Positions 1-60,533 of a stretch of 64,000 nt of DNA are shown in pieces (position 1 is the stretch's first letter; each line of letters begins with the position of its first letter). This stretch comes from Thermoanaerobaculia bacterium (lineage in GTDB: Bacteria; Acidobacteriota; Thermoanaerobaculia; Multivoradales; Multivoraceae): contig OY762911.1 of the NCBI GenBank assembly GCA_963666565.1, forward strand, positions 2,728,476 to 2,792,475, given 5' to 3'. Both the position numbers and the translations under genes were made by a program. The notes under the pieces are model-generated. The model saw only the letters and a list, made by a program, of their open reading frames with translations, made no database searches and was not told the DNA's origin.

Positions 1-108
1 CGCCGGCCTTTACGGTCGAGGGCGTCTTCGTGGCGGCCGACGGCGTGACTCCCGCCGCTTCCGGGCGGCTACACGCTGGAACTGACGGCAGCGAACGCCG
101 GCCGGCGG

Positions 109-1731
109 GTGCTGGAGGTCTCGGGATCGGCGGGCGAGGCGCGCGACCTGGGGGTTGTCGTGGCCCCGGCGTCGGCCTGGGTGTCCGGGACCGTCGTGAG
201 TCCCGAGTACGCTCCGGTTCCCGGCGCCAGGATCTCCTACCTGCGTCCGACCGAGTTCGGCGCCTTGTTGGCCAGAGCGATGGGGGGCGTGGTGGAGATC
301 ACGGCGAATGCCGATGGCTACTTCGAGATGCACGGCCTGGAACTCGGCCCGGCGAGCCTCCGCGTGGAGGCGGAGGGATTCGCTCCGCTGGAGTTCGAGG
401 TCGAGGCCGCGGCAATCGAGTGGGTCGATGCCGGCTTCGTCGAGCTCTCGCGCGGGCGCCGGATCACTGTGCGTTCCGACGTCGACGGCGGCGGGGTGAA
501 CCTCGATCCGGGTCCCGAGCACGATCCCCTGGGGCCGATGAAGGGCAAGGTGGTCGGCGGCGAGGCCGTGTTCGAGAACGTTCCCGAGGCGCCGCTGCGG
601 GTGCGGGTCATGGACGAGGGCGTGCCGGTCTGCGAGCGCCGCGAGGAGGCCGGAACCGGCGACGAGGCGATCCGGTGCGACCGGAGCACGGTGACGGTGA
701 CCGGTCTGGTGACGGTCGGAGGGCAGCCTGGAAAGGGGAGGTTGAGTTGGCTGTCGAAGGTGGAGAACCCGCAACCCGAAGGAGTCGGGAGAATCCTCGG
801 CTCGCCGCTTGGACGGACTCTGGGCGTTTCCAGCAAGCTCGAACTGACGGCGTTCCTCGACGGCGAGGGCCGCTATCGGCTGGAGTCGATGCTCCCGGGC
901 GAGTGGAACGTGACCCTCCGGTCGGAGACTGACGGAATGCAGGAGCGGCGCGAGATCACGGTGCCGGAGGCTCCAGGCGAGGAGGTAGTCGTCGACTTCC
1001 GCTACGGCGGCGTGGCGATCGAGGGAAGCGTCGTCGATGCCGAGGGACAGCCCGTTGCTCACGCGACGGTCGACGTCTTTCCGGACCGCCAGACAGTGGG
1101 GACGGGCCGGAACGGCCGCTACGAGATCATGGATCTGGCGCCGGGCGCGTACCAGTTGCGGGCGAGGTTCCAGCACTCCCGCTCCGACTTGGTGGACGTG
1201 GAGCTCCGCGACTACAACGACCTGCAGTCCGTCCAACTGCACCTGCGCGACGATCCCCCGGACGACGAACTCGCGGTCCGGCTCGCCGGCGCCGCCGGCG
1301 GCTTCTGCTTCGTCGAGATGGAAGGCGCCGGGCAGCGGACCGTCCGGATCGATGGCGGCGCGGCGAGCACGAAACTCACTCCGCCTCTCACCGACCGGGT
1401 CCGCGTCGCCTGCCAGGCCGACGGACGCTGGGTCCTCACCGGCTGGCGGGATCTCGAACCCGCGCTGGAGCGCGGTATCGACCTCGATCCCTTCGAGTCG
1501 GATTCCTCGATCGTCCTGACCGGCGAGCCGTCGACGGCGGCGGTGCAGGTGACCGGCCCGGGCGGCTGGGATCTAGGCTCTCTCCGCATCTGGTTCGGCG
1601 GCGCGACGACGTTCCCCGTCGGCGAGACGATTCCCAACCTGCCGGAGGGCGAGTACACCCTGCGCTGGGGGAACCAGGTGCGGACCGTGTGGACGGAACG
1701 GCGGCGGACCGCCGAGGTGGAGATCGAGTAA
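109..1731 (+). CDS. Secreted protein with repeated carboxypeptidase-regulatory-like (prealbumin-fold) domains. The in-window start at 109 is probably artefactual, and the gene probably continues upstream of the window.
   Basis: 540-aa ORF with repeated Gly/Val-rich beta-sandwich-like segments (GTVVSPEYAPVPGARISY...ADGYFEMHGLELGPASLRVEAEGF; GRYEIMDLAPGAYQLRA). Frame 1 is open from nt 49. The upstream frame-3 translation (FTVEGVFVAADGVTPAAS) also looks protein-like, which suggests a frameshift or window truncation near nt 46-70. Confidence 0.45.
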   Translation: MLEVSGSAGEARDLGVVVAPASAWVSGTVVSPEYAPVPGARISYLRPTEFGALLARAMGGVVEITANADGYFEMHGLELGPASLRVEAEGFAPLEFEVEAAAIEWVDAGFVELSRGRRITVRSDVDGGGVNLDPGPEHDPLGPMKGKVVGGEAVFENVPEAPLRVRVMDEGVPVCERREEAGTGDEAIRCDRSTVTVTGLVTVGGQPGKGRLSWLSKVENPQPEGVGRILGSPLGRTLGVSSKLELTAFLDGEGRYRLESMLPGEWNVTLRSETDGMQERREITVPEAPGEEVVVDFRYGGVAIEGSVVDAEGQPVAHATVDVFPDRQTVGTGRNGRYEIMDLAPGAYQLRARFQHSRSDLVDVELRDYNDLQSVQLHLRDDPPDDELAVRLAGAAGGFCFVEMEGAGQRTVRIDGGAASTKLTPPLTDRVRVACQADGRWVLTGWRDLEPALERGIDLDPFESDSSIVLTGEPSTAAVQVTGPGGWDLGSLRIWFGGATTFPVGETIPNLPEGEYTLRWGNQVRTVWTERRRTAEVEIE

Positions 1732-1765
1732 GAGTGCGGAGCCGGCCTGACGGCCGGCCCGTTTC

Positions 1766-1812
1766 TTTGCCGCCTTCGGCGGCGGCGGGTCAGAAGACCC
1801 GCGCACCCAGTA
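1766..1812 (-). repeat. Copy A of the triple-hairpin intergenic repeat, in reverse orientation, between convergent genes.
   Basis: The reverse complement of 1768-1809 reads tgggtgcgcgggtcttctgacccgccgccgccgaaggcggcaaag. This matches the cores of the copies at 11213, 21455, 34291 and 60464. Hairpin GCGGGTC/TTCT/GACCCGC at 1785-1802. Confidence 0.8.
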
Positions 1813-1817
1813 GGCCG

Positions 1818-2636
1818 CTACTTGCCGCCGGTCACCGGCCACTTGGCCGGGTCGTGGTGCCTCAGGTAGTCCTTGCGGTCGATCCAGCCGAGGATCATCG
1901 ACCACGTCATCCAGCGCTTTTCGGGCAGGATGGCGAAGTAGACGTGGGCCACGGTGAGCGTCACCAGCACGACGCCGCCGACGCCGTGGAGGACGTAGAC
2001 CCAGCCCCAGCCGCCGTCGCCGAAGAACTTGTAGTCGTCCTGGGCCCAGAGCGGCTGCTCGATCCGCCACATCATCAGGATGCCGGTGACGATCGCGGCC
2101 ATGCCCGCCAGGGTCGCGGCGTGATGGAACATCTTCTGCGCCGCCGGGTACTTGCCGGGCTTGGCGGGCGCCTCGCCGCCGGTAACGGCCTTGCGCATCT
2201 CGCGCATCATGTCGCCGAGGTCCGAGAGCCCGACCCATACGTTCTTCAGGCTCTGGAAGAAGGTCGCGTGGACGATGTGGAAGACGATCGACGCGGTCAG
2301 GATCAGGCCGGTGATCCAGTGAATCTCGAGCCAGGCGAACTGCAGGCCGACCTTGGGCAGGAAGCCCGTGATCAGCAGCAGGATCATCGAGATCCCCATC
2401 ACGGCATGGAACAGGCGGGACGCCAGACTGTGCCGCTGGATCTTCTGCGGCAGACCCGGATCGTCGGGGGCGTTGGCGGCTGCCTTCTTCTCCTCGCCGA
2501 TCCAGCGGCGGCGGAGCGCCAGGTGGAGGATCAGGAACACGCCGCCGGCGATCAGCGCGATCCAGAACAGACTCCAGTCGATCCCCAGGAGGACGTCCTG
2601 TCCCCACGGGTTGGTGGCCCTCTGAAAGAGATTCAT
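1818..2636 (-). CDS. b-type cytochrome membrane subunit (Ni/Fe-hydrogenase / formate dehydrogenase gamma-like cytochrome b family). It is the last gene of the Mo-hydroxylase operon.
   Basis: 272 aa with multiple hydrophobic helices carrying conserved His residues (RHSLASRLFHAVMG, HWITG...FHIVH, FHHAATLAG, VLHGVGG, AHVYF). It lies 8 nt downstream of the FAD subunit on the same strand. Confidence 0.6.
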   Translation of the reverse strand: MNLFQRATNPWGQDVLLGIDWSLFWIALIAGGVFLILHLALRRRWIGEEKKAAANAPDDPGLPQKIQRHSLASRLFHAVMGISMILLLITGFLPKVGLQFAWLEIHWITGLILTASIVFHIVHATFFQSLKNVWVGLSDLGDMMREMRKAVTGGEAPAKPGKYPAAQKMFHHAATLAGMAAIVTGILMMWRIEQPLWAQDDYKFFGDGGWGWVYVLHGVGGVVLVTLTVAHVYFAILPEKRWMTWSMILGWIDRKDYLRHHDPAKWPVTGGK

Positions 2637-2643
2637 GCGGGCC

Positions 2644-3648
2644 CTAGACCGGCGCCTGTCCGCGGATGGCGCGGCGGATGAGGTTCCTCATCAGCGGCAC
2701 CTTGTAGCCGTTGTGGCGGAGCGGCTTGGCGCCGATGACGCCCAGCTCGGCGATCCGGGTGGCGACGTCTTCGCTGATCTTCTGGCCGCGCAGAAGCTCC
2801 TCGCAACGGTCCATGCGGAGCGGCACCGGCGAGACGGCGCCGACGGAGAGGCGGCAGTCCTGGACGACCCCGTCCTCGACCCGCATCGCGGAGGCGACGT
2901 TGACCAGGGGGAAGTCCCAGGCGTTCCGGTCGCGAACCTTCTCGAAGTAGAAGTCGGCGCCGGCCCAGGTGTCCGGGATGCGGACGGACTGCAGGACCTC
3001 GTTGGGCTGCAGGACGGTCATCCGCGTGATGTCGATCGCGGGGCCGACGAAGAAGTCCTCGGCGGCCACGGTCCGCTCGCCGCGGCGGCCGCGGATGACC
3101 ATCTCGGCGTCCAGCGCGATCAGCGCCGGCGCGGTGTCCGACGGCGTGACCGCGACGCAGCGCGAGGCGTCGAAGATGCAGTGCTCGCGGTTCATCGACT
3201 CCGGCGTGTCGGCGTAGCAGATGTTGCCGCCCGCCCGGTAGCAGGGCCAGCCGGCGCGGTAGTACCAGCAGCGGGTGTCCTGCACCAGGTTGCCGCCGAG
3301 CGTCCCCTGGTTGCGGATCTGCGGGGTGGCGACGGTTTCGGCGGCTTCCGCGAGGATGCCGTAGCGCTCCCGGATCAGCTCGTTGTCCACGACCTCGGTG
3401 AGCGGGGTCATGGCGCCGATCTCGATGCCCCCGTCGGTTTCGCCGATGCCGGACAGTTCCGGGATCGCGCCGAGGTCGACGACCGCTTCGGGCCGCTTCA
3501 CCCGGTCCTTGAACCAGTCGAAGGTGTCCATCCCGCCGGCGAGCACCCAAGCGCTCTCGCGGTGACGGTCGAGGACTTCGAGGGCGCCGTCCAGGCTCTC
3601 GGGCTGGTACAGCTCGAAGTCGGGGATCATGTCGTGGATGACGGCCAT
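2644..3648 (-). CDS. Molybdopterin dehydrogenase FAD-binding (medium) subunit (CoxM/XdhB/PaoB-like).
   Basis: 334 aa. FAD_binding_5-like N-terminus (LAGGMDTFDW, TLGGNL) and a CO-dehydrogenase flavoprotein C-terminal-like region. Located between the large subunit and the cytochrome b gene. Confidence 0.75.
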   Translation of the reverse strand: MAVIHDMIPDFELYQPESLDGALEVLDRHRESAWVLAGGMDTFDWFKDRVKRPEAVVDLGAIPELSGIGETDGGIEIGAMTPLTEVVDNELIRERYGILAEAAETVATPQIRNQGTLGGNLVQDTRCWYYRAGWPCYRAGGNICYADTPESMNREHCIFDASRCVAVTPSDTAPALIALDAEMVIRGRRGERTVAAEDFFVGPAIDITRMTVLQPNEVLQSVRIPDTWAGADFYFEKVRDRNAWDFPLVNVASAMRVEDGVVQDCRLSVGAVSPVPLRMDRCEELLRGQKISEDVATRIAELGVIGAKPLRHNGYKVPLMRNLIRRAIRGQAPV

Positions 3649-3693
3649 GCTGTGGTTTCCTCCTTCTGATCCGATCAGGCGTTCCGTGGCCGA

Positions 3694-6144
3694 TCAGGTG
3701 TGCGCGGCCAGGAATTCGCCGTCCTGCTCGCGGCCCTCGAGCTGGTTGATGATGTGGTCGGTCATGAGCGGCAGGTAGGCCACCGTGTCCTGCCCCAGCG
3801 CGTCCTGGATGGCGCACAGGAGCGCGGCGCAGCCGGCGCCCATCGGCGGCTCGCCGATGCCCTTGGAGCCCACCGGGTTGTTCGGGTCCGGCATGTTCAC
3901 CGCGTCCCACTCCATCTCAAGCGGCACGTCGAGGATCGTGGCCGGCCGGGCGGTGTAGAAGCGGTTGGCGAAGGGGATGCCCCACTGCGGGTCGTACACC
4001 CACTTCTGGCCGACCGCGCAGCCGAAGCCCTGGACGGCGCCGCCGTGAAGCTGGCCGCCGAGGCTCCTGGGGTTGAGGACGGTGCCGCAGTCGGTGACCG
4101 CCTTGTAGTCCGCGAGTTCGATGACGCCGGTTTCCTTGTCCAACTCGATCTCGGCGTAGGCGACGACCCAGGAGTAGACGTCGCCGGCGCGGCCGTAGTT
4201 GTCCTTGGCGGCGGCCAGCAGGCCCTTGCCCTTGAGGACGGCGGCGCCTCCGAGCGTGATCGGGCTCAGGCCCTCGTTCAGCTCGGTGCCGTCGAAGCGG
4301 CCCCCGAGTTCGATCGCCTTCCGGGCGGCCTGGGCGAAGCTCAGGCCCGCCGCGCGGTTGCCGCGCCGGTAGACGCGCTCGCCGGCGACGACGTACTGCG
4401 AGGCCGAGCCGCCGTGGACCTGGGCCGCGATCTCCTGCAGCTTCGTCTTCATGTCGGTGGCGGCGGCGTGAGTGGCGCGGGTGATTGCGTGGGTCGTCTG
4501 GCTGCCCGCCTGCACGCAGGTGTGGGGGACGCCCTTGCCGGTGTCGCCCCAGACCATGTCCACCTTCTCCCACGGCACGTCGAGCAGGTCGGCGGCGACG
4601 CGCGCGGTGTCGGAGTAGGAGTGGGTGCCGAGGTTGCCGATCCCGGTGTGGATCTCGAGCCGGCCTTCCGGCGTGATCAGCATGAGTCCGTCGAAGCCGC
4701 TTGAACCGGCGGTGTAGGTCGAACTCGCGAGGCCGACGCCGGTGATCTTCGAGCCGTTTGCCTGCCCGCTGCGGGCCTTGGCGTCGTCCCAGTCGACCAT
4801 CTCGGCCAGCCGGTTCCAGGCCTCGGCAACGTAGGCGGTGGTCACGTTGCGACCTTCCCCGTCGCCGAACTTGGCGCCGTTCTTCGCGATGTTGATCTGG
4901 CGGATCGTCAGACGGTCGATCCCCAGGTGGTCGGCGGCGCGGTCGAGCAGGGGCTCGACCATGGCGGACATCTGCACGCCGCCCGGCGCCCGCTGCGGCG
5001 CCCTCGGCGGCGTGTTCGTCGCGATGGAGAGGCCGCGGTGGCGCATGTTCTCGGGCTGGTAGGTGAGGGACACCATGTTGCCCGAGGTGCCCATGTCGCT
5101 CTGGCGGCCGTACGGGCCGTTGTCCTGGATCACCGCCCAGTCGAAGGCGGTGATGCGGCCGTCGTTCCTGAATCCGATCTTCGCCCAGCCCTGGAAGCCG
5201 GGGCGGGCGCGGCCGATGTAGTTCTCCTCGTAGCGGGTGACCCGGTGCATGACCGGCTTGCCGGTCTTCTTCGCCAGGTAGACCGGCACCGCCATGTTGC
5301 TGGTGCCGACGATCTTGCTGCCGAAGCCGCCGCCGGTGTACTCGGCATGGACGACCAGGTTCTGGGGCGGCACCCCGACCGTGCCCTGGCCCGCGAGCAG
5401 CGTGAAGGCGACGCTCTGGGTCGAGGGATAGAGGTGGCAGGTTTCGCCTTCCCAGTGGGCCATGCAGCTCCGCGGCTCCATCGGGTGGTGGGTCACGGAC
5501 TGGAAGAAGAGCGGCTCGTCGATGATGTAGTCGGCGTCGGCGAAGCCCTTCTCCAAGTCGCCGTTCGTCCACTCGTCCTGGAACACGCCCTCGGGCATCC
5601 TGCCCTTCTCGCCGTCCGAGCCCCTCCCGGCAGCGAGATCCTCGGCCTTCCACTCGACGCGCTCGACGACGGTCTCCATTCCCGTGTCGGTGCGCCGGCG
5701 GACGATGCTGTTGCCGTCCGGCAGCGAGTTCGCGCCTCCCGGGGCGATCGAATCCAGCGGATCCAGCGCGAACGGGAGCGGCTCGAAGTCGACCTGGATC
5801 TTCTCGATCGCGTCGGCGGCGATCTTCTCGCTGACGGCGGCGACGGCGAGCACGGGCTCGCCCTCGTACTTCGGATGGTTCGTCAGGGAGCGTTCGTCCA
5901 GCGGCCCCGCCTCGCCCATGTACTCGGCGAGGTCGTCCGCGGTGAGAACCGCCTCGACGCCCTCCATCTCCAGGGCGGCGGAGGCGTCGATGTTGCGCAC
6001 CCGCGCGTGGGGCATCGGCGAGAGCAACTGCTTGGCGAACAGCATGCCCTCGGCGCGCCAGTCCTCGGCGTACTTGGCGCGGCCGGTGATCTTCTCGATC
6101 AGGTCGGGTGGGGCGTAGTCGGTGCCGACGAGGGTGTTGGCCAT
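3694..6144 (-). CDS. Molybdopterin-binding large subunit of a xanthine dehydrogenase / aldehyde oxidase-family molybdenum hydroxylase.
   Basis: About 816 aa with aldehyde oxidase/xanthine dehydrogenase a/b-hammerhead and Mo-binding regions (e.g. TGGGFG, GQLHGG..QG..E). Start chosen at MANTLVGTDY (ATG at 6144) because a GGAGGA sits 8 nt upstream. This is not the upstream in-frame ATG at 6183, which would overlap the small subunit. Confidence 0.8.
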   Translation of the reverse strand: MANTLVGTDYAPPDLIEKITGRAKYAEDWRAEGMLFAKQLLSPMPHARVRNIDASAALEMEGVEAVLTADDLAEYMGEAGPLDERSLTNHPKYEGEPVLAVAAVSEKIAADAIEKIQVDFEPLPFALDPLDSIAPGGANSLPDGNSIVRRRTDTGMETVVERVEWKAEDLAAGRGSDGEKGRMPEGVFQDEWTNGDLEKGFADADYIIDEPLFFQSVTHHPMEPRSCMAHWEGETCHLYPSTQSVAFTLLAGQGTVGVPPQNLVVHAEYTGGGFGSKIVGTSNMAVPVYLAKKTGKPVMHRVTRYEENYIGRARPGFQGWAKIGFRNDGRITAFDWAVIQDNGPYGRQSDMGTSGNMVSLTYQPENMRHRGLSIATNTPPRAPQRAPGGVQMSAMVEPLLDRAADHLGIDRLTIRQINIAKNGAKFGDGEGRNVTTAYVAEAWNRLAEMVDWDDAKARSGQANGSKITGVGLASSTYTAGSSGFDGLMLITPEGRLEIHTGIGNLGTHSYSDTARVAADLLDVPWEKVDMVWGDTGKGVPHTCVQAGSQTTHAITRATHAAATDMKTKLQEIAAQVHGGSASQYVVAGERVYRRGNRAAGLSFAQAARKAIELGGRFDGTELNEGLSPITLGGAAVLKGKGLLAAAKDNYGRAGDVYSWVVAYAEIELDKETGVIELADYKAVTDCGTVLNPRSLGGQLHGGAVQGFGCAVGQKWVYDPQWGIPFANRFYTARPATILDVPLEMEWDAVNMPDPNNPVGSKGIGEPPMGAGCAALLCAIQDALGQDTVAYLPLMTDHIINQLEGREQDGEFLAAHT

Positions 6145-6160
6145 GCTCTGGTTCCTCCGC

Positions 6161-6889
6161 TCAGGCGGTGCGCGCGTTCTCAAGCGCGCGTTCGGCCGTG
6201 TTCAGGATCTTGTTGTAGTCGCCGCAGCGGCAGATGTGGCCGGCGAGCCACTTCTGGGCGTCCGCGCGGGTCGCGTTCGGGTTGGCCTTGACCAGGGCCG
6301 CCATGCTCATGATGAAGCCCGGAGCGCAGAAGGCGCACTGGAAGCCCATCTCGTCGATGACCGCCTGCTGGACCGGGTGAAGGACGCCGTCCTGTTCGAG
6401 ACCTTCCACCGTGGTGACCTCGCGTCCCCGCACCTGATGCACCAGGATCGAGCAGCCGTAGTGGGGAACGTCGTCGATCAGCACGGTGCAGGCGCCGCAC
6501 TCGGCGCGGTCGCAGCCGAGCTTGGTGCCGGTGAGGTCCAGCTTGTAGCGCAGCACCATGGCCAGGGTGTCCATCGGCTCCACATCGAGCTCGTGGCTCT
6601 CGCCGTTCACCCGGAGCTCGATCGTTCGGGCCACCGGCTCGGTCGCCGCGCGCAGCACGTCGGGCTGCAGCAGGTTGCCGCCCGCCATCGAGACGGCGGC
6701 GCCGGTGGCGACGGAACCCTGGATGAAGGTCCGCCGGCTGACGCTCGAGAGGCCGCCGCCGTCGCCCGATTCGCCCTCTTCCAGGTCGAGCCGGGCCTCC
6801 GTTTCGAGGTCGGAGTTCTCGTCTCGCAGATCCTCCAGCAGGTCGTCCTGCAGGAAGACGTCTTCTCTCAGCTCATCCATGGTCTCCAA
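6161..6889 (-). CDS. [2Fe-2S]-binding small subunit of the molybdenum hydroxylase, with a twin-arginine (TAT) signal peptide.
   Basis: 242 aa. TAT motif SRRTFIQGSVATGAAV. Both 2Fe-2S cysteine clusters are present: plant-ferredoxin-type GCDRAECGACTV and the second cluster QCAFCAPG...CRCG. It is the first gene of the operon. Confidence 0.8.
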   Translation of the reverse strand: METMDELREDVFLQDDLLEDLRDENSDLETEARLDLEEGESGDGGGLSSVSRRTFIQGSVATGAAVSMAGGNLLQPDVLRAATEPVARTIELRVNGESHELDVEPMDTLAMVLRYKLDLTGTKLGCDRAECGACTVLIDDVPHYGCSILVHQVRGREVTTVEGLEQDGVLHPVQQAVIDEMGFQCAFCAPGFIMSMAALVKANPNATRADAQKWLAGHICRCGDYNKILNTAERALENARTA

Positions 6890-7045
6890 CCTCCGTCAGG
6901 CGGGCGGTGGTCAAGGGGGCTGCCCTCTGGTCTGTTACCGGCTTCCGGCGGCGAGCATACAACATGAATCCCGGGCCGCCGAAAGGCGAACTTCCGCGGC
7001 GGCCGGGAGGACGGCGGCGCCGGTTCGCGAACCGAGGCGGCCGGG

Positions 7046-8746
7046 TCAGATCCGGCCTCCGACGATCACGTCGAGCACCCGGGGGCCGCCGGCGGCGAAG
7101 GCTTCGCGCACCGCGTCCTCGACTTCGGCCGGATCCTCGACCTTCCGGCCCGGCACGCCCATGCCCGCGGCCATCTCGACGAAGTCGAGTTCCGGCTCGG
7201 TGAGGTTCATGTGGGGGTAGGGCCGGTCCGCCGGGATGCCGAAGCGTTCCCGGTAGATGTCCATGTTGATCTTCAGGATCTTGTACTCGCGGTTGTGCAG
7301 GATCAGGAAGACGATCGGCATGTCGTAGTGGGCGGCGGTCCAGAGCGCCTGGATCGAGTACATGGCCGAGCCGTCGCCCGAGAACACGATGACCGGCCGC
7401 TCGGGGTGGGCCAGCGAGGCGCCGATGCCGCCGACGAGTCCCTGGCCGATGCCGCCGCCGCGGGTGCCGCAGTAGCGGTCCGGGTCGTCGACGGGCAGGA
7501 AGCCGAGCAGGTCGCCGCCCGCGGTGATCGACTCGTTGACCACGACGGCGTCGTCCGGCACGGCCTTGGCGACCTCGGACATGAGGCGCGCCGGCGACAT
7601 GGGCGCGTCGTCGAAGTGGGCCTTGAGCCGCTTCCGGCGCGCGGCGTGCGCGCCTTCGGCGGCCGCCCGCAGCTTGTCCATGCGCTCCGCGGCGGCCGTC
7701 CGGAAACCGGCGTCCGCGGCCGCCTCAAGCGCCTCCCGCAGCGCCGCGAGCCCGGCCCGCGGGTCGGCGAGCATTCCCGCGTCGACCGCGAAGTTGAAGG
7801 CGAGCCGGCTCGGGGCGTCCTCGATCTGGAGCACGGCCGTTTCGGCGCCGAACGGGGAGTCCGGGTCGAACCAGACCTCCTCGAAGAAGGAGCCACCGAC
7901 CAGCAGGACGACGTCGGCACCGCCAAGCGCGTGCTGGATGCCTGCGTGGTTGAGCGGCATCCGCGGCCGGAAGCAGGGATGGCTCTGCGGGAAGTTCAGG
8001 CGCTGCATCAGCCCTTCCGGGTAGACCCCCGCGCCGAGGAACTCGGCCAGCGCGACGAGTTCCCGCTGGCCGCCGCTCCTGGCGACGCCGTCGCCGATCA
8101 CGATCGCCGGCTGACGCGCCCGGCCCAGCAGCTCGGCCATGCGGGCGACCGCAGCCGCTTCCGGCTGCGGCGCCCGGTAGAGGTCGCCGAGCGGCCGTAC
8201 CGGCTCCGAGGTCTCTTCCTCCAGGACGTTGAGCGGCAGCGCGACGAACACCGGCCCCGCGGGCGGATCGTGCGCCACCTTGAAGGCGCGGTGGAGGATC
8301 GGCGCGAACTCGTCGGCGCGCTCGACCTGGACGCTCCACTTGACCAGGGGATCGGCCATCGCCACCAGGTCGTGGCCCAGCAGGGGCTCGCGGAGCCGCG
8401 ATCGGGTGTCCTGCTGGCCGGCCGTGACGACCATCGGGGTGTTCGCCTCCCAGGCGTTGTAGAGCATGCCGAGGGCGTTGCCGAGCCCCGGCGCCACGTG
8501 CAGGTTGACGACCCCGGCGATGCCGGTCGCCTGCGCGTAGTAGTGCGCCGCGCCGAGCGCCACGGACTCGTGCAGCGCCAGGACGTAGCGCAGGTCCGGG
8601 TGGTCGGAGAGCCGGTCCATCAGCGGACTCTCCGTGGTGCCGGGATTGCCGAACAGGAACGGAATGCCGTACTCGGTCAGGGCGTCGAGCAGGACGTCGC
8701 CGCCGCGTTGGGGGCTGCGCTTCGGACGGATCGCTGGCAAGCTCAT
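7046..8746 (-). CDS. Thiamine pyrophosphate-dependent enzyme, benzoylformate decarboxylase (MdlC)-like.
   Basis: 566 aa from an ATG at 8746, which is the C-terminal part of the 1325-aa artefact ORF. Motifs align with benzoylformate decarboxylase: FGNPGTTESPLM, RYVLALHE, NLHVAPGLGNALG, VVTAGQQ, LVKWS and the TPP-binding GDGSAMYSIQALWTAAHY. Confidence 0.7.
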   Translation of the reverse strand: MSLPAIRPKRSPQRGGDVLLDALTEYGIPFLFGNPGTTESPLMDRLSDHPDLRYVLALHESVALGAAHYYAQATGIAGVVNLHVAPGLGNALGMLYNAWEANTPMVVTAGQQDTRSRLREPLLGHDLVAMADPLVKWSVQVERADEFAPILHRAFKVAHDPPAGPVFVALPLNVLEEETSEPVRPLGDLYRAPQPEAAAVARMAELLGRARQPAIVIGDGVARSGGQRELVALAEFLGAGVYPEGLMQRLNFPQSHPCFRPRMPLNHAGIQHALGGADVVLLVGGSFFEEVWFDPDSPFGAETAVLQIEDAPSRLAFNFAVDAGMLADPRAGLAALREALEAAADAGFRTAAAERMDKLRAAAEGAHAARRKRLKAHFDDAPMSPARLMSEVAKAVPDDAVVVNESITAGGDLLGFLPVDDPDRYCGTRGGGIGQGLVGGIGASLAHPERPVIVFSGDGSAMYSIQALWTAAHYDMPIVFLILHNREYKILKINMDIYRERFGIPADRPYPHMNLTEPELDFVEMAAGMGVPGRKVEDPAEVEDAVREAFAAGGPRVLDVIVGGRI

Positions 8747-8872
8747 GGCGAGCGAGGCTAGCAGGAGCGGCGGGCGGTTCCCCGTCGCCCGTTTGGACGT
8801 GGCGGGCGCGGCCCTTCCGGTGCTACGGTTAGCGACTTCCGAGCCCTCTCGGGGGCACCCACAACGAGCCGG

Positions 8873-11200
8873 ATGGAGGCGACGGCAATGGCCAGCGGCG
8901 AGACAGGCAACGGAGTACTGGACGAGCAGACGCAAGCGGCGGCGGCGTTCATGGGCGCCGACCGGTTCCAGGGAATCAGGAGGCTTCACACCGCGCGCGA
9001 AGTGGCGGCGCAGCGGGGCTCGATTCCGCAGGACTACACGGTGGCGCGGGACGCCGCGGCGGCCTTCCACGCGCGGCTGAGGGACCTGTTCGACCGGAGG
9101 AAGTCGATCACCACGTTCGGCCCGTACTCGCCGGGCCAGGCGGTGGCGATGAAGCGGCGAGGGATCGAGGGCATCTACCTCGGTGGCTGGGCGACCTCGG
9201 CCAAGGGCTCGATCACCGAGGATCCGGGGCCGGATCTCGCCAGCTACCCCCTGAGCCAGGTGCCGGACGAGGCGGCGCCGATCGTCCGCGCCCTGCTGAC
9301 GGCCGACAAGAACCAGACCTTCAACCGTTCGCGGATGAGCGAGGCGGAGCGGCGGGCGAACCCGGCGACCGACTTCCGCCCGTTCATCGTCGCCGACGCG
9401 GACACCGGCCACGGCGGCGAACAGCATGTGCGCAACCTGATCCGCCGGTTCGTCGAGGTGGGCGTGCCCGGCTACCACATCGAGGACCAGAAGCCCGGGG
9501 TCAAGAAGTGCGGCCACCAGGCGGGCAAGGTCCTGGTGCCGCAGGACGAACAGAACAAGCGGCTGAACTCCGCCCGCTTCCAGTTGGACGTGATGGCGGT
9601 TGCCGGCCTCATCGTCGCCCGCACGGACTCGGAGGCCGCGACCTTCCTCGACGGCAACGGCGACGAGCGCGACCAGGCGTTCATTCTCGGCGCCACGAAC
9701 CTCGATCTGCCGAGCTGCAAGACGGCGACCCTGGCCATCCTGCGGCGGCTGAACGCCCTGGGCGCGGAAGACGTCCGCGGCCACGAGCTGTACGAGATCT
9801 CGGAAGCCGCCTACCGCCGCGCCGACCTCTGGCTGGAGGGCGCCGGCGTCTACGAGCGGCTCGAGTCCGCCTACGGCAAGGCGGCCGCGAACGGCGGCGC
9901 GGCGGTCGAGGCCGCGCTCGACGAGACGATGGCCTCCTTCCTCGACGCCTGGCAGGCGGAGGCCGGGCTCAAGACCTACCCGCAGGCCGTGGCGGAAGTC
10001 ATCGCCTTCCGGGAAGAGGAAGGCGCGGTCTTCGATCTCTCGGTGGAGGAGTGGCTGGAGTTCGCCCACTCCGTGCCGGTCGAGGAAGCGGCGGCCCGTG
10101 CGCGCAAGATGGGCATCAACCTGGTCTGGAACGCCGAGATCGCGCGCACCCCCGAGGGCTACTACCAGATCCGGGGCGGCATCGAGTACGCGATCTCGCG
10201 TTCCCTGCACGCCGCGCCCTACGCCGACCTGATCTGGATGGAGACGGCGACCGCCAACCTGAAGGACGCGCGCCGCTTCGCCGAGGCGATCCACGCCGTG
10301 TTCCCGGACCAGTTGCTGGCCTACAACCTCTCCCCCTCCTTCAACTGGGACACGACCGGCATGTCGGACGAGGAAATGAAGAAGTTCCCGGAGGAACTGG
10401 GCAGGCTCGGCTACGTCTTCAACTTCATTACCTACGGCGGCCACCAGGTCGACGGTCTGGCGGCGGAGGACTTCGCCACCGCCCTGCGCGAGGACGGCAT
10501 GTTGGCGCTGGCCCGGCTGCAGCGGAAGCTGCGTCTGGTGGGGTCGCCCTACCGGACGCCGCAGGCCCTCGTCGGCGGCGCCCGGCTCGACGGCGGGCTC
10601 TCGGCCGCGACCGGCCACACGGCGACGACCAAGGCGATGGGCAAGGGCTCGACCCACGTTCAGCACCTGGCGCAGACCGAGGTGCCGCCGCGGCTGCTCG
10701 AGGAGTGGCTCGACCTGTGGCGCGGCAAGTACGACGTCGACGAGCGCATGCGCGTGGAACTCCGGCCCCACGTCGCCGGTTCCGAGCTCCTGGAGCTCAA
10801 CGTCCTGGCTCGGAACGGACGCGACGAGTCGAAGGCGGCGAACGTCGTCTTCGCGCCCATCCGCGACCGCCGAGAGCGGATGATCCTCTCGGTGCGCGAC
10901 CAGAACACCTTCGACCTCGACCTGAGGAGGCGCCGCCTGATGGCGCTGATCCACGTGTTCCTGATCCACCGCTACGGCGCGGCGTGGGTCCACTACGTCA
11001 GTCCGACGGACGACAACCAGCACCAGACCCGGCGCATGATCGAACTCGGGATCTTCGAGACGGCGAACACCGAGGTCGGCGAGATCATCGTCGCGGCGGT
11101 CAACCGGGAACGGGTCCGCGAACTTGCGGGGCGGGATCGCGAGTCGCTGACGGCGCTGATCGAGAAGACCGAACCGGCGCCGGTGCGGGCCGCCTCGTGA
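8873..11200 (+). CDS. aceA: Isocitrate lyase, long form (about 770 aa, ICL2/AceAb-like).
   Basis: ICL catalytic signature KKCGHQAGK. Mg/substrate loop [12 protein letters not shown]. Length and central insertion typical of long-form ICLs. The alternative start MASGETG at 8888 is possible. Confidence 0.8.
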
Positions 11201-11212
11201 TCCGGGCCGCCC

Positions 11213-11293
11213 GCTGGGTGCGCGGGTCTTCTGACCCGCTGCCGCCGAAGGCGGGCAGGAGCACGCGCCGCGAAGCGGCTCCGCTTGGCGGCC
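11213..11293 (+). repeat. Copy B of the triple-hairpin intergenic repeat.
   Basis: ctgggtgcgcgggtcttctgacccgctgccgccgaaggcgggcaggagcacgcgccgcgaagcggc. Hairpins GCGGGTC-TTCT-GACCCGC, GCCGCC-GAAG-GCGG and GCCGC-GAA-GCGGC. It begins 13 nt after the ICL stop and ends 18 nt before the metalloprotease GTG start. Confidence 0.85.
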
Positions 11294-11310
11294 GGTTCCA
11301 TAGCCGCGTC

Positions 11311-13905
11311 GTGACCGCGATCTGGGCGCTGGCCTCGGTCCTCTCGATTCAGGGTCTTCAGGCGCAGGACGCCGGGGCGGAGGAGCCCCGGTCGATCTCG
11401 GAAGCCACCGGAGGCTTCGAGCATCTGCCCGGCTTTCTCGACCTGTTCTGGGACAGCCGGGGCGGCAGGCTGTTCCTCGAGATCGACTCCTTCGACGACG
11501 ACCTGCTGTACATCGAGTCGCTGTCGGCGGGCCTCGGGTCGAACGACATCGGCCTCGACCGCGGCCAGCTCGGCGGCACCCACCTGGCGCGGTTCGAGCG
11601 GGTCGGGCCGAAGGTCCTGCTGGTGCAGCAGAACACCCGTTATCGCGCGCTGAGCGACAACCCGGACGAGCGGCGCGCGGTCGCCGACGCCTTCGCGCGC
11701 TCGGTCCTCTGGGGCTTCCAGGTGGCGGCCGAGGACGAAGGCGGCGCGGTGCTGGTGGACGCGACGGACTTCGTGCTCCGGGACGCGCACGGCGTCGTGG
11801 CGCGGCTCCGGCAACGGGGGCAGGGGAGCTACCAGTTGGACGCCTCGCGCTCGGCGATTCACCGTCCCGGCGTCGCCGCCTTTCCGCGCAACTCGGAACT
11901 CGAGGGCACGCAGACCTTCACCCTGCGGCCTTCGGAGCGGGGGCCGGGCGCCTGGGTTCGCCAGGTCGCGCCTTCGCCCGAGGCGCTCACGTTGCGCGTC
12001 CGCCACTCCTTCGTCGCCCTGCCCGAACCCGGGTACGAACCCCGGCTCGCCGATCCCCGTGCCGGCTTCAACGTGACCGGTTATCTCGACTACGCGACTC
12101 CCATCGACCAGCCGATCGAGACCGTTTTCATCGACCGGCACCGCCTCGAGAAGCGTGACCCGAACGCGGAGCGAAGCGAACCGGTCGAACCGATCGTCTA
12201 CTACCTGGACCGGGGCGCGCCGGAGCCCATCCGTTCGGCGCTGCTCGACGGCGCCCGCTGGTGGAACGAGGCGTTCGAGGCCGCGGGCTACATCGACGCG
12301 TTCCGGGTCGAGCTGCTGCCGGAGGGGGCCGACCTGCTCGACGTGCGCTACAACGTGATCCAGTGGGTGCATCGGTCGACCCGCGGATGGTCCTACGGCG
12401 GCGGGGTCACCGACCCGCGCACCGGCGAGATCCTGAAGGGCCACGTGACGCTCGGTTCCCTGCGGGTGCGGCAGGACTTCCTGATCGCCCAGGGCCTCCT
12501 GTCGCCCTACGAGGACGCGGACTCGTCCACCGAGGCGCTCACCGAGATGGCGCTTGCCCGGCTGCGCCAGCTTTCGGCCCATGAAGTCGGCCACACGATC
12601 GGCCTGATGCACAACTTCGCCTCCAGCGTCGATGGACCGGACGGCCGCGAGTCGGTCATGGACTATCCGCATCCGCTGGCCAGGTTGCGCGAGGACGGCA
12701 TGATCGACCTGAGCGCGGCCTACGACGTGGGCATAGGCGAATGGGACAAGCGGGCGGTCCTCTACGGCTACGCCGACTTCCCCGACGGCGCCGACGAGGC
12801 GGCGGAACTCGACGCCATTCTGCGCGGGACGATCGACGCCGGGCTCCACTTCATCGCCGACGAGGATGCGCGGCCGGTGGGCGGTGCCCATCCGCTGGCC
12901 CACCTCTGGGACAACGGCCGTTCGGCGGCGGAAGAACTGCGGCGCATCCTGTCCGTGCGGCGCGCGGCGCTCGACCGGTTCTCCGAGCGCAGCGTCCGGG
13001 TCGGCGATCCGCTGTCCGCGCTGGAGGACGTCCTGACCCCGCTCTACCTGCTGCATCGCTACCAGATCGAGGCGGCGGCCAAGGCGGTCGGCGGGATCGA
13101 CTACAGCTACGCCGTCCGCGGCGACGGCCAGGCGCCGGTGTCGCTGCTGCCGCCGGCGATGCAGTTCGACGCGCTGGACGCGCTGCTCCGGACGGTCGAT
13201 CCGGCCGAACTCACGCTGCCCCCGGAGATCGTCGACCTGATCCCGCCGCCGTCTCCGGGTCGCGGCCGCGGGCGGGAGCAGCTTCCGTCGCGCGCCGGCC
13301 CGGCGTTCGACCCGGTGGCCGCGGCCGAGATGGCGGCCGACCTGACCTTCGGCATGATCTTCGACGGCGCGCGCGCCGCCCGGCTGGTCGATCACCGTTC
13401 CCGGGCGGGGGCGCAGCCGGGTCTCCGCGCCGTGATCGACCGGGTGCTGGCCGCTACCTGGCGCGCCGATCCGCATTCGGGCCTTGCCGGAGAAGTCGGT
13501 CGGGCCGTCGACTTCGCGGCCCTGCGGCGGCTGATGCTTCTGGCGGCCGGCGGGCGGGTCGGCGGCGGCGCGTCGGCCGCCGTTCCGACGAACTTCGACT
13601 GGCCGACCGTGCCCGAGCGGAACGGTTCGTTCCAGGCGCGGGCCGAGGCCCGGGCCGATCTGGCGGCCCTGGAGGGTTGGCTGGAAGCGAATCCGGCCGC
13701 CGACGACCCGGCGGAGGAGGCGCACCGCGGCTATGCCCGCTGGCTGATCGGGCGTTTTCTCGAGGATCCGGGCTCGGTGGAACTGCCGGCCCCGCTGCGC
13801 GCGCCCGACGGTTCGCCGATCGGCTGCAGCGTCGGCCCGGGCGGTCTGGCGTTCGCTTCGTGGAGCGCCGGGCCCGGGTGGTCTTCGGGGTCGGCGCCGC
13901 CGTGA
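11311..13905 (+). CDS. Secreted zinc-dependent metalloprotease (DUF4953 / DUF5117-type met-zincin family).
   Basis: HEVGHTIGLMHNF zincin motif plus a downstream SVMDYP. About 865 aa from a GTG at 11311, with a hydrophobic N-terminus (VTAIWALASVLSIQGLQAQ). This is the real C-terminal 2.6 kb of the 1465-aa track ORF. Start is uncertain. Confidence 0.7.
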   Translation: MTAIWALASVLSIQGLQAQDAGAEEPRSISEATGGFEHLPGFLDLFWDSRGGRLFLEIDSFDDDLLYIESLSAGLGSNDIGLDRGQLGGTHLARFERVGPKVLLVQQNTRYRALSDNPDERRAVADAFARSVLWGFQVAAEDEGGAVLVDATDFVLRDAHGVVARLRQRGQGSYQLDASRSAIHRPGVAAFPRNSELEGTQTFTLRPSERGPGAWVRQVAPSPEALTLRVRHSFVALPEPGYEPRLADPRAGFNVTGYLDYATPIDQPIETVFIDRHRLEKRDPNAERSEPVEPIVYYLDRGAPEPIRSALLDGARWWNEAFEAAGYIDAFRVELLPEGADLLDVRYNVIQWVHRSTRGWSYGGGVTDPRTGEILKGHVTLGSLRVRQDFLIAQGLLSPYEDADSSTEALTEMALARLRQLSAHEVGHTIGLMHNFASSVDGPDGRESVMDYPHPLARLREDGMIDLSAAYDVGIGEWDKRAVLYGYADFPDGADEAAELDAILRGTIDAGLHFIADEDARPVGGAHPLAHLWDNGRSAAEELRRILSVRRAALDRFSERSVRVGDPLSALEDVLTPLYLLHRYQIEAAAKAVGGIDYSYAVRGDGQAPVSLLPPAMQFDALDALLRTVDPAELTLPPEIVDLIPPPSPGRGRGREQLPSRAGPAFDPVAAAEMAADLTFGMIFDGARAARLVDHRSRAGAQPGLRAVIDRVLAATWRADPHSGLAGEVGRAVDFAALRRLMLLAAGGRVGGGASAAVPTNFDWPTVPERNGSFQARAEARADLAALEGWLEANPAADDPAEEAHRGYARWLIGRFLEDPGSVELPAPLRAPDGSPIGCSVGPGGLAFASWSAGPGWSSGSAPP

Positions 13906-15128
13906 CCGGCGCCGAAGCCGCATCGCTCCGGCTTCCGGCCGCGGTTGCCGGCATCTACAGCGCCGGCGAGGTCGCCGAACTCGTCGACTTGCGGCGGACG
14001 CTTCATGCCGACCCCGAACTCTCGCTCCAGGAAGAACGCACGGCGGCCCGGCTCGAGCGGACACTCGACGAACTCGGCATCGACGACGTCGTCCGGGTGG
14101 CCGGCACCGGCGTCGTCGGACGCATCCCCGGCCGCGATCGCGGCGCGCCGCCCGTCGCGGTGCGCGGCGACATCGACGCGCTGCCGATCCAGGAAGACAC
14201 CGGCCTGCCGTTCGCCTCGCGCAACGCAGGCGTCATGCACGCCTGCGGCCACGACGTACACGCCTCGTGGACGGTCGCTGCCGCCCGCCTGCTCCAGGCC
14301 GAGCCGGCGGCGGGCGACGTTCTGCTCGTGCTGCAGCCGGCGGAGGAGACCGGCGAGGGCGCCGCGGCGGTCCTCGCGACCGGCGTCCTGGACGAGGCGG
14401 CGGCGATTTTCGGCGCCCATGTCGACCTGACGTTCGAGGTCGGGCAGGCGATGATCCAGCCCGGCGCCGTGGGCGCCGCCGCCGACCGCTTCGAGATCGA
14501 GCTCCGCGGCAAGGGCGCGCACGGTGCGAGGCCGCACCAGGGACTCGATCCGATCATCGGCGCCGCCCAGGTCGTTTCCGCTCTGCAGACGGTGGTCTCC
14601 CGGCGGGTGCCGCCCGACCAACCGGCGGTGGTCACCGTCGGCGCCGTCGAGGCGGGCACAGCGCACAACGTGATTCCCGACCGTGCCGTGCTCAAGGGCA
14701 CCATGCGATCGCTGGCCCCGGCGGTCCGGAAGCTCCTGGCGGACGAAGTGCGGCACGTCGCCGAATCGGTCGCCGCGGCCTGCCGGCTCGAGGCCCAGGT
14801 GCGGATGCTCCAGGGCACGCCGGCCGTGCTGAACGACGAACGCGCCGCCGGCTGGGCTCGCGACGCCGCGGCTTCGGTGATCGGCGCCGAGGCGGTCAAG
14901 CCGCTGCCGGCCGCGAACATGGGCGGCGAGGACTTCGCCTTCTACCTGGAGCGGATCCCCGGATGCTTCATCCGGGTCGGCGCCCGGCGCCCTGGCGACC
15001 CCGTCGTCGGCGCCCACACGCCGTACTTCGCGCCGGCGGAGGAGGCGATCTTCGTCGGCGGGGCGTTGCTCGCCGCGGCGGCGCGGCAGGCGTCGCGGGA
15101 GCTGGCGGAGCAGGCGGCCGTCTCCTGA
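13902..15128 (+). CDS. M20-family amidohydrolase (N-acyl-L-amino acid amidohydrolase / hippurate hydrolase-like).
   Basis: Motifs MHACGHD, LQPAEE..G. and ELRGKGAHGARP are typical of the M20D peptidase/amidohydrolase family. The GTG start overlaps the metalloprotease stop (GTGA at 13902-13905). Confidence 0.7.
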   Translation: MTGAEAASLRLPAAVAGIYSAGEVAELVDLRRTLHADPELSLQEERTAARLERTLDELGIDDVVRVAGTGVVGRIPGRDRGAPPVAVRGDIDALPIQEDTGLPFASRNAGVMHACGHDVHASWTVAAARLLQAEPAAGDVLLVLQPAEETGEGAAAVLATGVLDEAAAIFGAHVDLTFEVGQAMIQPGAVGAAADRFEIELRGKGAHGARPHQGLDPIIGAAQVVSALQTVVSRRVPPDQPAVVTVGAVEAGTAHNVIPDRAVLKGTMRSLAPAVRKLLADEVRHVAESVAAACRLEAQVRMLQGTPAVLNDERAAGWARDAAASVIGAEAVKPLPAANMGGEDFAFYLERIPGCFIRVGARRPGDPVVGAHTPYFAPAEEAIFVGGALLAAAARQASRELAEQAAVS

Positions 15129-21454: not shown

Positions 21455-21535
21455 GCTGGGTGCGCGGGTCTTCCGACCCGCTGCCGCCGAAGGCGGCCGG
21501 GAGAACGCCAGCCGTCGGCTCGGCGCCGTTTCGCG
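21455..21535 (+). repeat. Copy C of the triple-hairpin intergenic repeat, between convergent genes.
   Basis: ctgggtgcgcgggtcttccgacccgctgccgccgaaggcggccgggagaacgccagccgtcggctcggcgcc. First two hairpins conserved; third module variant GCCGTCGGCTCGGCGC. Confidence 0.8.
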
Positions 21536-34290: not shown

Positions 34291-34356
34291 TCGGTGCGCC
34301 GGTCTTCCGACCCGCCGCCGAAGGCGGCGAGGACTTCGCACCGCGAAGCGGCGCCC
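34291..34356 (+). repeat. Copy D of the triple-hairpin intergenic repeat, between divergent DUF3604 genes.
   Basis: tcggtgcgccggtcttccgacccgccgccgaaggcggcgaggacttcgcaccgcgaagcggcgcc. Its 3' flank supplies GAGGAGG 6 nt upstream of the GTG start at 34371. Confidence 0.8.
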
Positions 34357-60151: not shown

Positions 60152-60484
60152 ATGAAGCGCTTCTACCTCCTACTCTGCGTCTTGGGCACGGTGCTGCCGT
60201 ACTGGCAGTTCCTGCGGTTCTTCCTGGGCGACGCCGGGTTCGACCTGCCCGGCTTCATCGGCGCGGCGACGGCCAATCCGGTAGCGGCCGGCTTCAGCAT
60301 CGACCTCGTCGTGTCGTCCGCCGCGTTCTGGGTCTTCCTGTTCACGGACGGCCGCCGACACCGTATCGGCCATCTGTGGGTGTACGTCGCGGCGAACCTG
60401 CTGGTCGGCCTGTCGCTGGCGCTGCCGCTCTACCTCTACCGCCGCGCGGCGGCGATCGAACCACTGGGTACGCGTGTCTTCTGA
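60152..60484 (+). CDS. Small membrane protein (DUF2834-like).
   Basis: 110 aa from the ATG at 60152, 3-4 TM helices. Its stop codon lies inside hairpin 1 of repeat copy E. Confidence 0.45.
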   Translation: MKRFYLLLCVLGTVLPYWQFLRFFLGDAGFDLPGFIGAATANPVAAGFSIDLVVSSAAFWVFLFTDGRRHRIGHLWVYVAANLLVGLSLALPLYLYRRAAAIEPLGTRVF

Positions 60485-60533
60485 CCCGCTGCCGCCGCCA
60501 GGCGGCCGGGAGACGCCGCCGCGAAGCGGCGAC
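60464..60533 (+). repeat. Copy E of the triple-hairpin intergenic repeat.
   Basis: ctgggtacgcgtgtcttctgacccgctgccgccgccaggcggccgggagacgccgccgcgaagcggcgacc. Confidence 0.8.

Follow-up and report, generated by a model that had tools for sequence, protein, structure and literature searches.

A predicted periplasmic molybdenum hydroxylase encoded with an FdnI-type cytochrome b in Thermoanaerobaculia and other bacteria

Molybdenum hydroxylases that belong to the xanthine oxidase family are known to exchange electrons with NAD+, O2, cytochrome c, pseudoazurin or ferredoxin, and the known members that are periplasmic or membrane-bound use cytochrome c or small soluble carriers. In a 64,000-nucleotide stretch of the genome of a Thermoanaerobaculia bacterium (GCA_963666565.1, contig OY762911.1, positions 2,728,476 to 2,792,475 of the forward strand; G+C content about 70%), referred to here as the window, three genes for such a hydroxylase are directly followed by a gene for a membrane cytochrome b. 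An earlier reading of this DNA, made from the letters alone (the original prediction), had suggested an atypical quinone-linked periplasmic oxidoreductase. Does the cytochrome belong to the hydroxylase, and if so, where would the electrons go? Our analysis confirms the four-gene arrangement of hydroxylase and cytochrome b, and we consider it probable that their products form a single periplasmic oxidoreductase, which is anchored in the membrane and reduces quinone.

A four-gene operon for a hydroxylase and a cytochrome b

The open reading frame (ORF) listing gave four consecutive, tightly packed ORFs on the minus strand at positions 1818-6889, here called S, L, M and B. Their coordinates and those of the flanking elements are as follows:

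6161..6880, minus strand: S subunit, 239 residues, two [2Fe-2S] domains after a predicted N-terminal twin-arginine translocation (Tat) signal (Pfam Fer2, Fer2_2)
3694..6144, minus strand: L subunit, 816 residues, catalytic subunit with the molybdenum cofactor (MoCo), xanthine oxidase family (Pfam Ald_Xan_dh_C, MoCoBD_1, MoCoBD_2)
2644..3648, minus strand: M subunit, 334 residues, binding flavin adenine dinucleotide (FAD) (Pfam FAD_binding_5, CO_deh_flav_C)
1818..2636, minus strand: B subunit, 272 residues, five-helix membrane cytochrome b (Pfam PF01292, Ni_hydr_CYTB)
1735..1817, minus strand: 3' hairpin element directly after the B stop codon, marking the operon end, from RNA folding
6881..7045: 165-nucleotide intergenic region 5' of S, presumed promoter region

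The order of 2Fe-2S subunit with predicted Tat signal, molybdenum subunit, FAD subunit and cytochrome b, as first proposed, is borne out by the ORF positions and the Pfam domains. From reading the sequence, the most likely start of S is the ATG at 6880, which has GGAGG ahead of it, rather than the TTG at 6889, and L starts at the ATG at 6144, behind GGAGGA, rather than at the TTG at 6183. M starts at the ATG at 3648, preceded by AAGGAGGA, and B at the ATG at 2636, 7 nucleotides past the M stop codon. With the refined starts of S and L, the gaps are therefore 16 (S-L), 45 (L-M) and 7 (M-B) nucleotides, so that the tight packing and the 45-nucleotide gap of the original prediction hold, but not its lower bound of 8 nucleotides.

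A hairpin and promoter scan of the operon strand found no promoter-like or minus-strand terminator-like site between the genes. Together with the 7-nucleotide gap behind M, this answers the objection, raised with the original prediction, that the cytochrome b gene might have a promoter or terminator of its own. The transcript 3' of the B stop codon folded into three to four stable GC hairpins (-56 kcal/mol, z = -4.6); a terminator-like hairpin at 1741-1758 scored on the plus strand, after the convergent gene. Upstream of S, no sigma-70-like site was found in 6881..7045, and a weak terminator-like hairpin (6984-6969) follows the gene for a thiamine diphosphate (ThDP) enzyme that lies upstream.

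S, L and M carry the features of three-subunit bacterial xanthine oxidases and Mo hydroxylases, namely Fe-S domains with eight Cys in S, a hammerhead and two MoCo-binding domains with their motifs in L, and FAD and CO_deh_flav_C domains in M. Each of the eight Cys in S is found in 100% of 47 family members. In L, 51 family members show no variation at Q243 (STQ motif), GGGFGSK at 271-277 and the catalytic Glu E765 (GIGEPP), and these residues align with their counterparts in rat xanthine dehydrogenase (XDH), PaoC and 4-hydroxybenzoyl-CoA reductase (4-HBCR). The best PDB match of L was the alpha subunit of 4-HBCR (E = 1.8e-56), with the large subunit of the Methylobacillus aldehyde oxidase as another match (2.6e-42). 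M scored 163 bits against FAD_binding_5 and 54 bits against CO_deh_flav_C, both over the cut-offs, and its best PDB matches were the Methylobacillus aldehyde oxidase (5y6q_B, 2e-45), CutM, the beta subunit of 4-HBCR and PaoB.

The FAD_binding_5 domain of M is interrupted by an insert of about 48 residues (217 residues cover 168 profile positions):

3157..3270, minus strand: Cys-rich insert of M (C127, C136, C144, C164), predicted [4Fe-4S] site, from the profile interruption and Cys alignment

The four Cys align with Cys of Escherichia coli PaoB and of 5y6q_B, and 98% of 57 family members retain them. The equivalent insert binds a [4Fe-4S] cluster in PaoB and in the beta subunit of 4-HBCR, and M is predicted to carry an extra [4Fe-4S] site as in PaoB.

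All named NCBIfam equivalogs (PaoABC, XdhABC, 4-HBCR, glyceraldehyde dehydrogenase, CO dehydrogenase and formate dehydrogenase gamma) scored below threshold; the enzyme is therefore a xanthine oxidase family member outside every curated subfamily. We rejected a true PaoABC orthologue on the NCBIfam scores (NF008514/NF041671 set; PaoA 141.4 against a cut-off of 322, PaoC 188.7 against 1180) and on the absence of the active-site Arg. This Arg of the PaoC GFRNN motif, which we take to be R440 in the literature numbering, aligns with S475-T476-Y477 of L, where the residue is Thr. Xanthine dehydrogenase was rejected by alignment with rat XDH, in which GGGFGGKE stands opposite GGGFGSKI (Ile278) and R880 opposite Thr; the purine-binding residues are Glu802 and Arg880 in the mammalian numbering. 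Aerobic CO dehydrogenase (form I CoxL) was rejected because the counterpart of its VAYRCSFR loop in L, TNTPPRAPQRAPGG, lacks the Cys; the NCBIfam model CO_dehy_Mo_lg scored 169.6 against a cut-off of 991. Finally, 4-HBCR itself was rejected on the scores of its alpha (325 against 994.6), beta (177.7 against 404.6) and gamma (143.5 against 257.8) subunits and on the predicted Tat signal, which points to the periplasm. The comparison of active sites suggested alongside the original prediction thus revealed no CoxL loop Cys, no xanthine Glu/Arg and no PaoC Arg. As substrate, an aldehyde would be most plausible, or else a compound that is aromatic or heterocyclic.

The predicted export signal of S consists of two parts:

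6719..6739, minus strand: twin-arginine motif S48-R-R-T-F-I-Q54 of S, from TIGR01409, Pfam TAT_signal and homologue conservation
6740..6880, minus strand: long acidic n-region, 47 residues, ahead of the RR motif, from composition, start-codon check and homologue comparison

The signal scored just above the cut-off of TIGR01409 (17.1 against 16.7) and just below that of Pfam TAT_signal (22.3 against 22.7). An SRRxFIKG motif is kept in essentially all S homologues across the loci, which favours the Tat signal first read from the S sequence. The first 46 residues hold 18 Asp or Glu and 3 Lys or Arg, and no in-frame ATG, GTG or TTG occurs between 6880 and the RR codons. Conservation of this long acidic region is confined to the Candidatus Multivorans clade; elsewhere the n-region is mostly about 14 residues long. 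The n-regions of other lineages often carry a D/E-x-E-I/V-I pattern. No signal peptide and no transmembrane or hydrophobic segment was found in L or M, and their export would therefore need to be joint with S. Co-export with a signal-bearing partner is known for other Tat-dependent multi-subunit enzymes.

The cytochrome b and its linkage to the hydroxylase genes

B scored 65.4 bits against PF01292 (cut-off 30.1) and has five hydrophobic segments. Lys plus Arg number 6, 6 and 7 on the predicted cytoplasmic segments, as compared to 1, 0 and 1 on the others, a distribution that by the positive-inside rule places the N-terminus outside and the C-terminus inside. An AlphaFold (AF2) model built from 120 homologues had a predicted local distance difference test score of 92.7. 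Its sole significant fold match in the PDB was FdnI, the gamma subunit of E. coli formate dehydrogenase-N (1kqf_C, E = 1.1e-5), with a TM-score of 0.74 normalised to FdnI. In pairwise and profile alignments, H77, H106, H217 and H231 of B correspond to the FdnI haem ligands H18, H57, H155 and H169, and all four are invariant in 120 sequences. The predicted haem positions fit a pair H106/H217 near the periplasm and a pair H77/H231 near the cytoplasm. On its domain, four-helix core and His ligands, B is thus predicted to be an FdnI-type dihaem cytochrome b. The original prediction was right to call the cytochrome b-type, but the resemblance is to FdnI rather than specifically to the Ni/Fe-hydrogenase type, and the segment and ligand prediction proposed with it gave five segments and four FdnI-type His.

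FdnI (PDB 1KQF chain C) shares with B the four-helix dihaem fold, the four His ligands and a cytoplasmic C-terminus. The two differ in their partners: FdnI works with a formate dehydrogenase that carries Mo-bis(pyranopterin guanine dinucleotide) and with FdnH, whereas the proposed partner of B belongs to the xanthine oxidase family. We rejected a formate dehydrogenase gamma subunit, since TIGR01583 scored 44.7 against a cut-off of 115.85 and the neighbours are xanthine oxidase family genes at every locus; public records label the cytochrome 'cytochrome b/b6 domain-containing' or 'formate dehydrogenase gamma'. B also has an N-terminal hairpin and transmembrane helix with an invariant His, and in all, this one included, five additional invariant His, that FdnI lacks. 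The two parts of B are:

1818..2444, minus strand: FdnI-like four-helix core of B, residues 65-272, with the four haem-ligand His
2472..2636, minus strand: N-terminal module of B, residues 1-55, a predicted beta-hairpin (NPWGQ and SWDL-type motifs) and a helix (TM0) with His38

The first approximately 55 residues are extra relative to FdnI, and within them P10, W11 and G12 (NPWGQ), W21 and H38 are invariant in the 120 sequences. In Proteobacteria, the counterpart of this module is a separate ORF for 47-51 residues between M and the cytochrome gene, which retains the motifs and the conserved His. B of the window is therefore a fusion of a single-helix subunit with an FdnI-like core. The small ORF lies at 6839-6994 of locus L087, 6845-6997 of L088 and 6853-6996 of L089, and is uncalled in two of these three records. 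The further invariant or near-invariant His of B (H38, H69, H120, H171 and H261) are all on the cytoplasmic side. H106 and H120 on helix 2, and H217 and H231 on helix 4, are each 14 residues apart.

A scan with one genome per species found relatives in at least 599 genomes, of which the best 80 were examined. By tblastn, the FAD-subunit gene lies directly upstream of the cytochrome b gene in 80/80 of these species genomes, and the order S-L-M-B is found in nearly all that have sufficient sequence. They cover Acidobacteriota (Thermoanaerobaculia, Vicinamibacteria and others), Gemmatimonadota (Longimicrobiales, Gemmatimonadales) and Entotheonella; the cluster is also present on further metagenome contigs, and the genes that flank it are unrelated from lineage to lineage. 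The closest cytochromes, 96-98% identical, belong to metagenome-assembled genomes of sponge-associated Acidobacteriota, recorded as Candidatus Multivorans, Thermoanaerobaculia or Holophagales. Gammaproteobacteria and other Pseudomonadota have a sister clade of cytochromes that are shorter (about 208-218 residues, 35-40% identity); the same three hydroxylase genes accompany them, arranged as S-L-M, L-S-M or S-M. No relative of the proteobacterial cytochrome b was found in a plasmid collection.

Synteny across species genomes and metagenome contigs excludes a chance arrangement. This bears directly on the idea that the cytochrome b gene is an unrelated neighbour, for instance a stand-alone cytochrome b561, for which the unspecific names in the public records could be cited. 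Adjacency to M in every one of the 80 species genomes from several phyla, despite unrelated flanks, the M-B gap of 7 nucleotides and the like linkage in the proteobacterial sister clade bring this explanation close to refutation, and we regard it as very improbable. Co-conservation of the cytochrome with the hydroxylase genes, on which the original prediction had made itself depend, thus extends across phyla, Proteobacteria included. M is directly followed by B, or by the small ORF and B, in every arrangement (S-L-M-B, L-S-M-small ORF-B and S-M-B), which fits the [4Fe-4S]-carrying M as the docking partner of B. In three loci (L043, L044 and L046) and the proteobacterial L088 the cluster is S-M-B, an L gene is missing within 7 kb, and the fifth gene described below is present. 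The electron-transfer module of these four loci may work with a catalytic subunit whose gene lies elsewhere.

Where the downstream sequence is long enough, all divergent loci have an ORF for about 135 residues 3' of the cytochrome gene, at a distance of a few to a few hundred nucleotides:

Locus L003, 8887-9348: fifth gene
Locus L004, 8952-9362: fifth gene
Locus L087, 7609-8028: fifth gene
Locus L090, 6001-6423: fifth gene
Most loci from L024 to L089: fifth gene

Its product has the motifs YEFxLAYAAQG and SSQLIDNLNASIHLRALLTDLF, and no match was found in Pfam, NCBIfam, PHROGs or a PDB sequence search. It has at least 8000 database relatives, and every named one among the 120 matches listed is called hypothetical. 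The model is a confident four-helix bundle, without a significant structural neighbour in the PDB, and no signal peptide was found. The gene is absent at this position in the whole Candidatus Multivorans clade, and it has no match anywhere in the 64-kb window; compared with the five- or six-gene module of other loci, the set in the window is reduced. The clade without the fifth gene is the same clade that has the long acidic n-region of S. It is possible that the fifth protein is a cytoplasmic assembly factor or Tat chaperone that the acidic extension makes dispensable.

The route and direction of electron flow

The domain content, conserved cofactor ligands, Tat motif, topology, FdnI fold and strict gene linkage are observed; what we infer beyond these is that S-L-M docks on B, which way the electrons flow, that quinone accepts them and what kind of substrate is used. 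The cofactor-loaded S-L-M trimer would be exported by the Tat system through the signal of S, with L and M carried along, and would dock on the periplasmic face of the cytochrome b. A substrate would be hydroxylated at the Mo centre of L. Electrons would then leave Mo by way of both [2Fe-2S] clusters in S, cross M by its FAD and its [4Fe-4S] cluster, and reach the haem on the periplasmic side (H106/H217). The haem on the cytoplasmic side (H77/H231) would hand them on to a quinone that, like the one in formate dehydrogenase-N, is bound close to the cytoplasmic face. Protons would be released outside and taken up inside, and the complex could therefore form an energy-conserving redox loop.

Several observations weigh against this scheme. 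L and M score best against 4-HBCR, the family member that runs in reverse. The five extra His of B exceed the need of two haems, and neither they nor the conserved fifth gene of other loci is accounted for by a simple FdnI-type arrangement. An acidic n-region of 47 residues is atypical of Tat signals, and a tblastn search with E. coli PaoD found no match for an XdhC/PaoD-type chaperone in the window or in 84 related loci.

The first of these points would suit a complex working backwards, in which quinol delivers electrons through the cytochrome b to the [4Fe-4S] cluster, FAD and [2Fe-2S] clusters, and the Mo centre reduces or dehydroxylates a periplasmic substrate, comparable to MsrPQ and to the inverted flow in 4-HBCR. 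The alpha and beta subunits of 4-HBCR are indeed the best scores of L and M, but these remain far under the equivalog cut-offs (325 against 995 bits for alpha). 4-HBCR is moreover a cytoplasmic enzyme with a CoA-thioester substrate that needs low-potential ferredoxin, and quinols are too weak as reductants for reductions of the Mo hydroxylase type. PaoB and the Methylobacillus aldehyde oxidase share the extra cluster, and both are oxidative. We therefore favour the oxidative direction, also because the terminal acceptor of PaoABC is stated as unidentified and its reaction with O2 is very slow (PMC3958847), and we consider the reverse complex unlikely.

The extra His of B and the fifth gene could instead point to a cytochrome b that is no quinone reductase but a transmembrane wire between the periplasmic enzyme and a cytoplasmic partner or an extra cofactor site; at other loci the partner could be the four-helix-bundle protein of about 135 residues. 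The five invariant His beyond the haem ligands cluster towards the cytoplasm, the single-helix module carrying one of them, and in each divergent locus the cytochrome b gene is succeeded by the fifth gene, whose product lacks a signal peptide. However, the clade of the window lacks this gene and yet conserves the four-gene operon strongly, the fold and ligands of FdnI suit a quinone site, and no function can be assigned to the fifth protein. Such a wire seems improbable to us. The extra His on the cytoplasmic side may mean that B holds a third haem, or that it has a special site for quinone or metal.

The likeness to PaoABC raises a further alternative, a detoxifying aldehyde oxidase that mainly reduces O2 and uses the cytochrome b chiefly as an anchor or minor electron sink. 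The architecture, in which S bears the predicted Tat signal and the FAD subunit a [4Fe-4S] site, is PaoABC-like, and PaoABC is a broad-spectrum aldehyde detoxifier (PMC3958847). A redox role of the cytochrome is nevertheless indicated by the four invariant haem ligands and the strict linkage; L is only 26% identical to PaoC, with Thr in place of its active-site Arg, and the slowness of PaoABC itself with O2 argues in the same direction. We give this alternative little chance. Thus, it appears that a membrane-anchored, quinone-reducing complex is the probable product of the four genes.

Gene context, related systems and significance

The ThDP enzyme gene (7046-8746, minus strand) lies upstream on the operon strand, and the best-scoring assignment of its product was benzoylformate decarboxylase (382 bits, cut-off 493). 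A long-form isocitrate lyase of 775 residues (8873-11200, plus strand) is encoded divergently from it. We rejected the ThDP enzyme as conserved context because its adjacency is restricted to the Candidatus Multivorans clade; as a clue to the substrate, it is at most a weak hint to aromatic aldehydes. In the proteobacterial locus L089, positions 8119-14627, 3' of the cluster, encode a cytochrome c' and aromatic ring meta-cleavage enzymes (LigA/LigB, CHMI, aldehyde dehydrogenase and FAA hydrolase), a possible hint at aromatic substrates from a single locus. On the other side of the operon, the convergent gene (109-1731, plus strand) encodes a 540-residue protein with carboxypeptidase-regulatory-like (CarboxypepD_reg) repeats. 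Its called counterpart on a 96%-related contig has 968 residues, and the ORF of the window may be truncated at the window edge.

The window also contains an intergenic repeat of about 70 nucleotides, with a 25-nucleotide core, TGGGTGCGCGGGTCTTCTGACCCGC, followed by further short GC hairpins. The core has 5 copies in the window, as compared to 0 expected:

1785-1809, minus strand: repeat core, within the 3' hairpin element of the operon
11215-11239, plus strand: repeat core
21457-21481, plus strand: repeat core
34291-34315, plus strand: repeat core
60465-60489, plus strand: repeat core

At least three copies begin 9-17 nucleotides past a stop codon on the coding strand, and the repeat looks like a repetitive extragenic palindromic (REP)-like or terminator-like 3'-end element. 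Rfam gave no match in positions 1-12000 of the window.

Among characterised enzymes, PaoABC (YagTSR, PDB 5G5G) is likewise a xanthine oxidase family heterotrimer with a Tat signal on its 2Fe-2S subunit, a four-Cys [4Fe-4S] insert in its FAD subunit and a conserved catalytic Glu. It differs in having no cytochrome b and in its gene order, which is S-M-L followed by paoD as compared to S-L-M-B here, so that the original prediction matched the subunits and the missing cytochrome of PaoABC correctly, but not their order. M is 32% identical to PaoB. HcrABC, the 4-HBCR of Thauera aromatica (PDB 1RM6), is the best-scoring solved relative of L, carries the [4Fe-4S] insert in its beta subunit and is the top NCBIfam match for L and M, but it has no Tat signal and no cytochrome. 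HcrABC is a cytoplasmic, ferredoxin-driven reductase of a CoA thioester. The aldehyde oxidase of Methylobacillus sp. KY4400 (PDB 5Y6Q), the best solved match of M with aligned insert Cys, is a soluble three-subunit enzyme; the PDB matches to this entry included no cytochrome b chain. The membrane-bound aldehyde dehydrogenase of acetic acid bacteria (PDB 8GY3), whose large subunit is a weak PDB match to L (1.1e-18), has a cytochrome c subunit and no FAD subunit, as the original prediction had stated. It is a xanthine oxidase family enzyme that passes electrons from the periplasmic membrane face to the quinone pool.

Full-text searches, with subscription literature outside their coverage, found no report of a xanthine oxidase family enzyme with a cytochrome b subunit, and no curated NCBIfam model covers this architecture. 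A PaoABC-like hydroxylase with an FdnI-like cytochrome b is thus a combination of known parts that we did not find described; it is widespread and uncharacterised, with a mechanistically familiar logic. More tentatively, at slightly less than even chances in our estimate, it may represent an undescribed and environmentally abundant class of respiratory complex. In such complexes, a hydroxylase would sit on an FdnI-like cytochrome b with a single-helix His subunit, usually accompanied by a four-helix-bundle protein. Periplasmic hydroxylation of the substrate would be coupled to quinone reduction as a proton-motive redox loop, the role of the surface [4Fe-4S] cluster in PaoABC-type enzymes would be explained as the exit to a membrane haem protein, and one more haem may be bound by the extra His.

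If our reading is true, the complex would be a new electron entry to the respiratory chain of Acidobacteriota, Gemmatimonadota and marine Proteobacteria, which are the dominant groups in soils, sediments and sponge microbiomes. It would also offer a testable answer to what takes electrons from PaoABC-type enzymes that bear a [4Fe-4S] cluster, and it would flag two unannotated small proteins, the transmembrane subunit of about 50 residues and the helical protein of about 135 residues, as parts of a redox system. The present assignment also corrects the label 'formate dehydrogenase gamma subunit', a common error in the annotation of such cytochromes.

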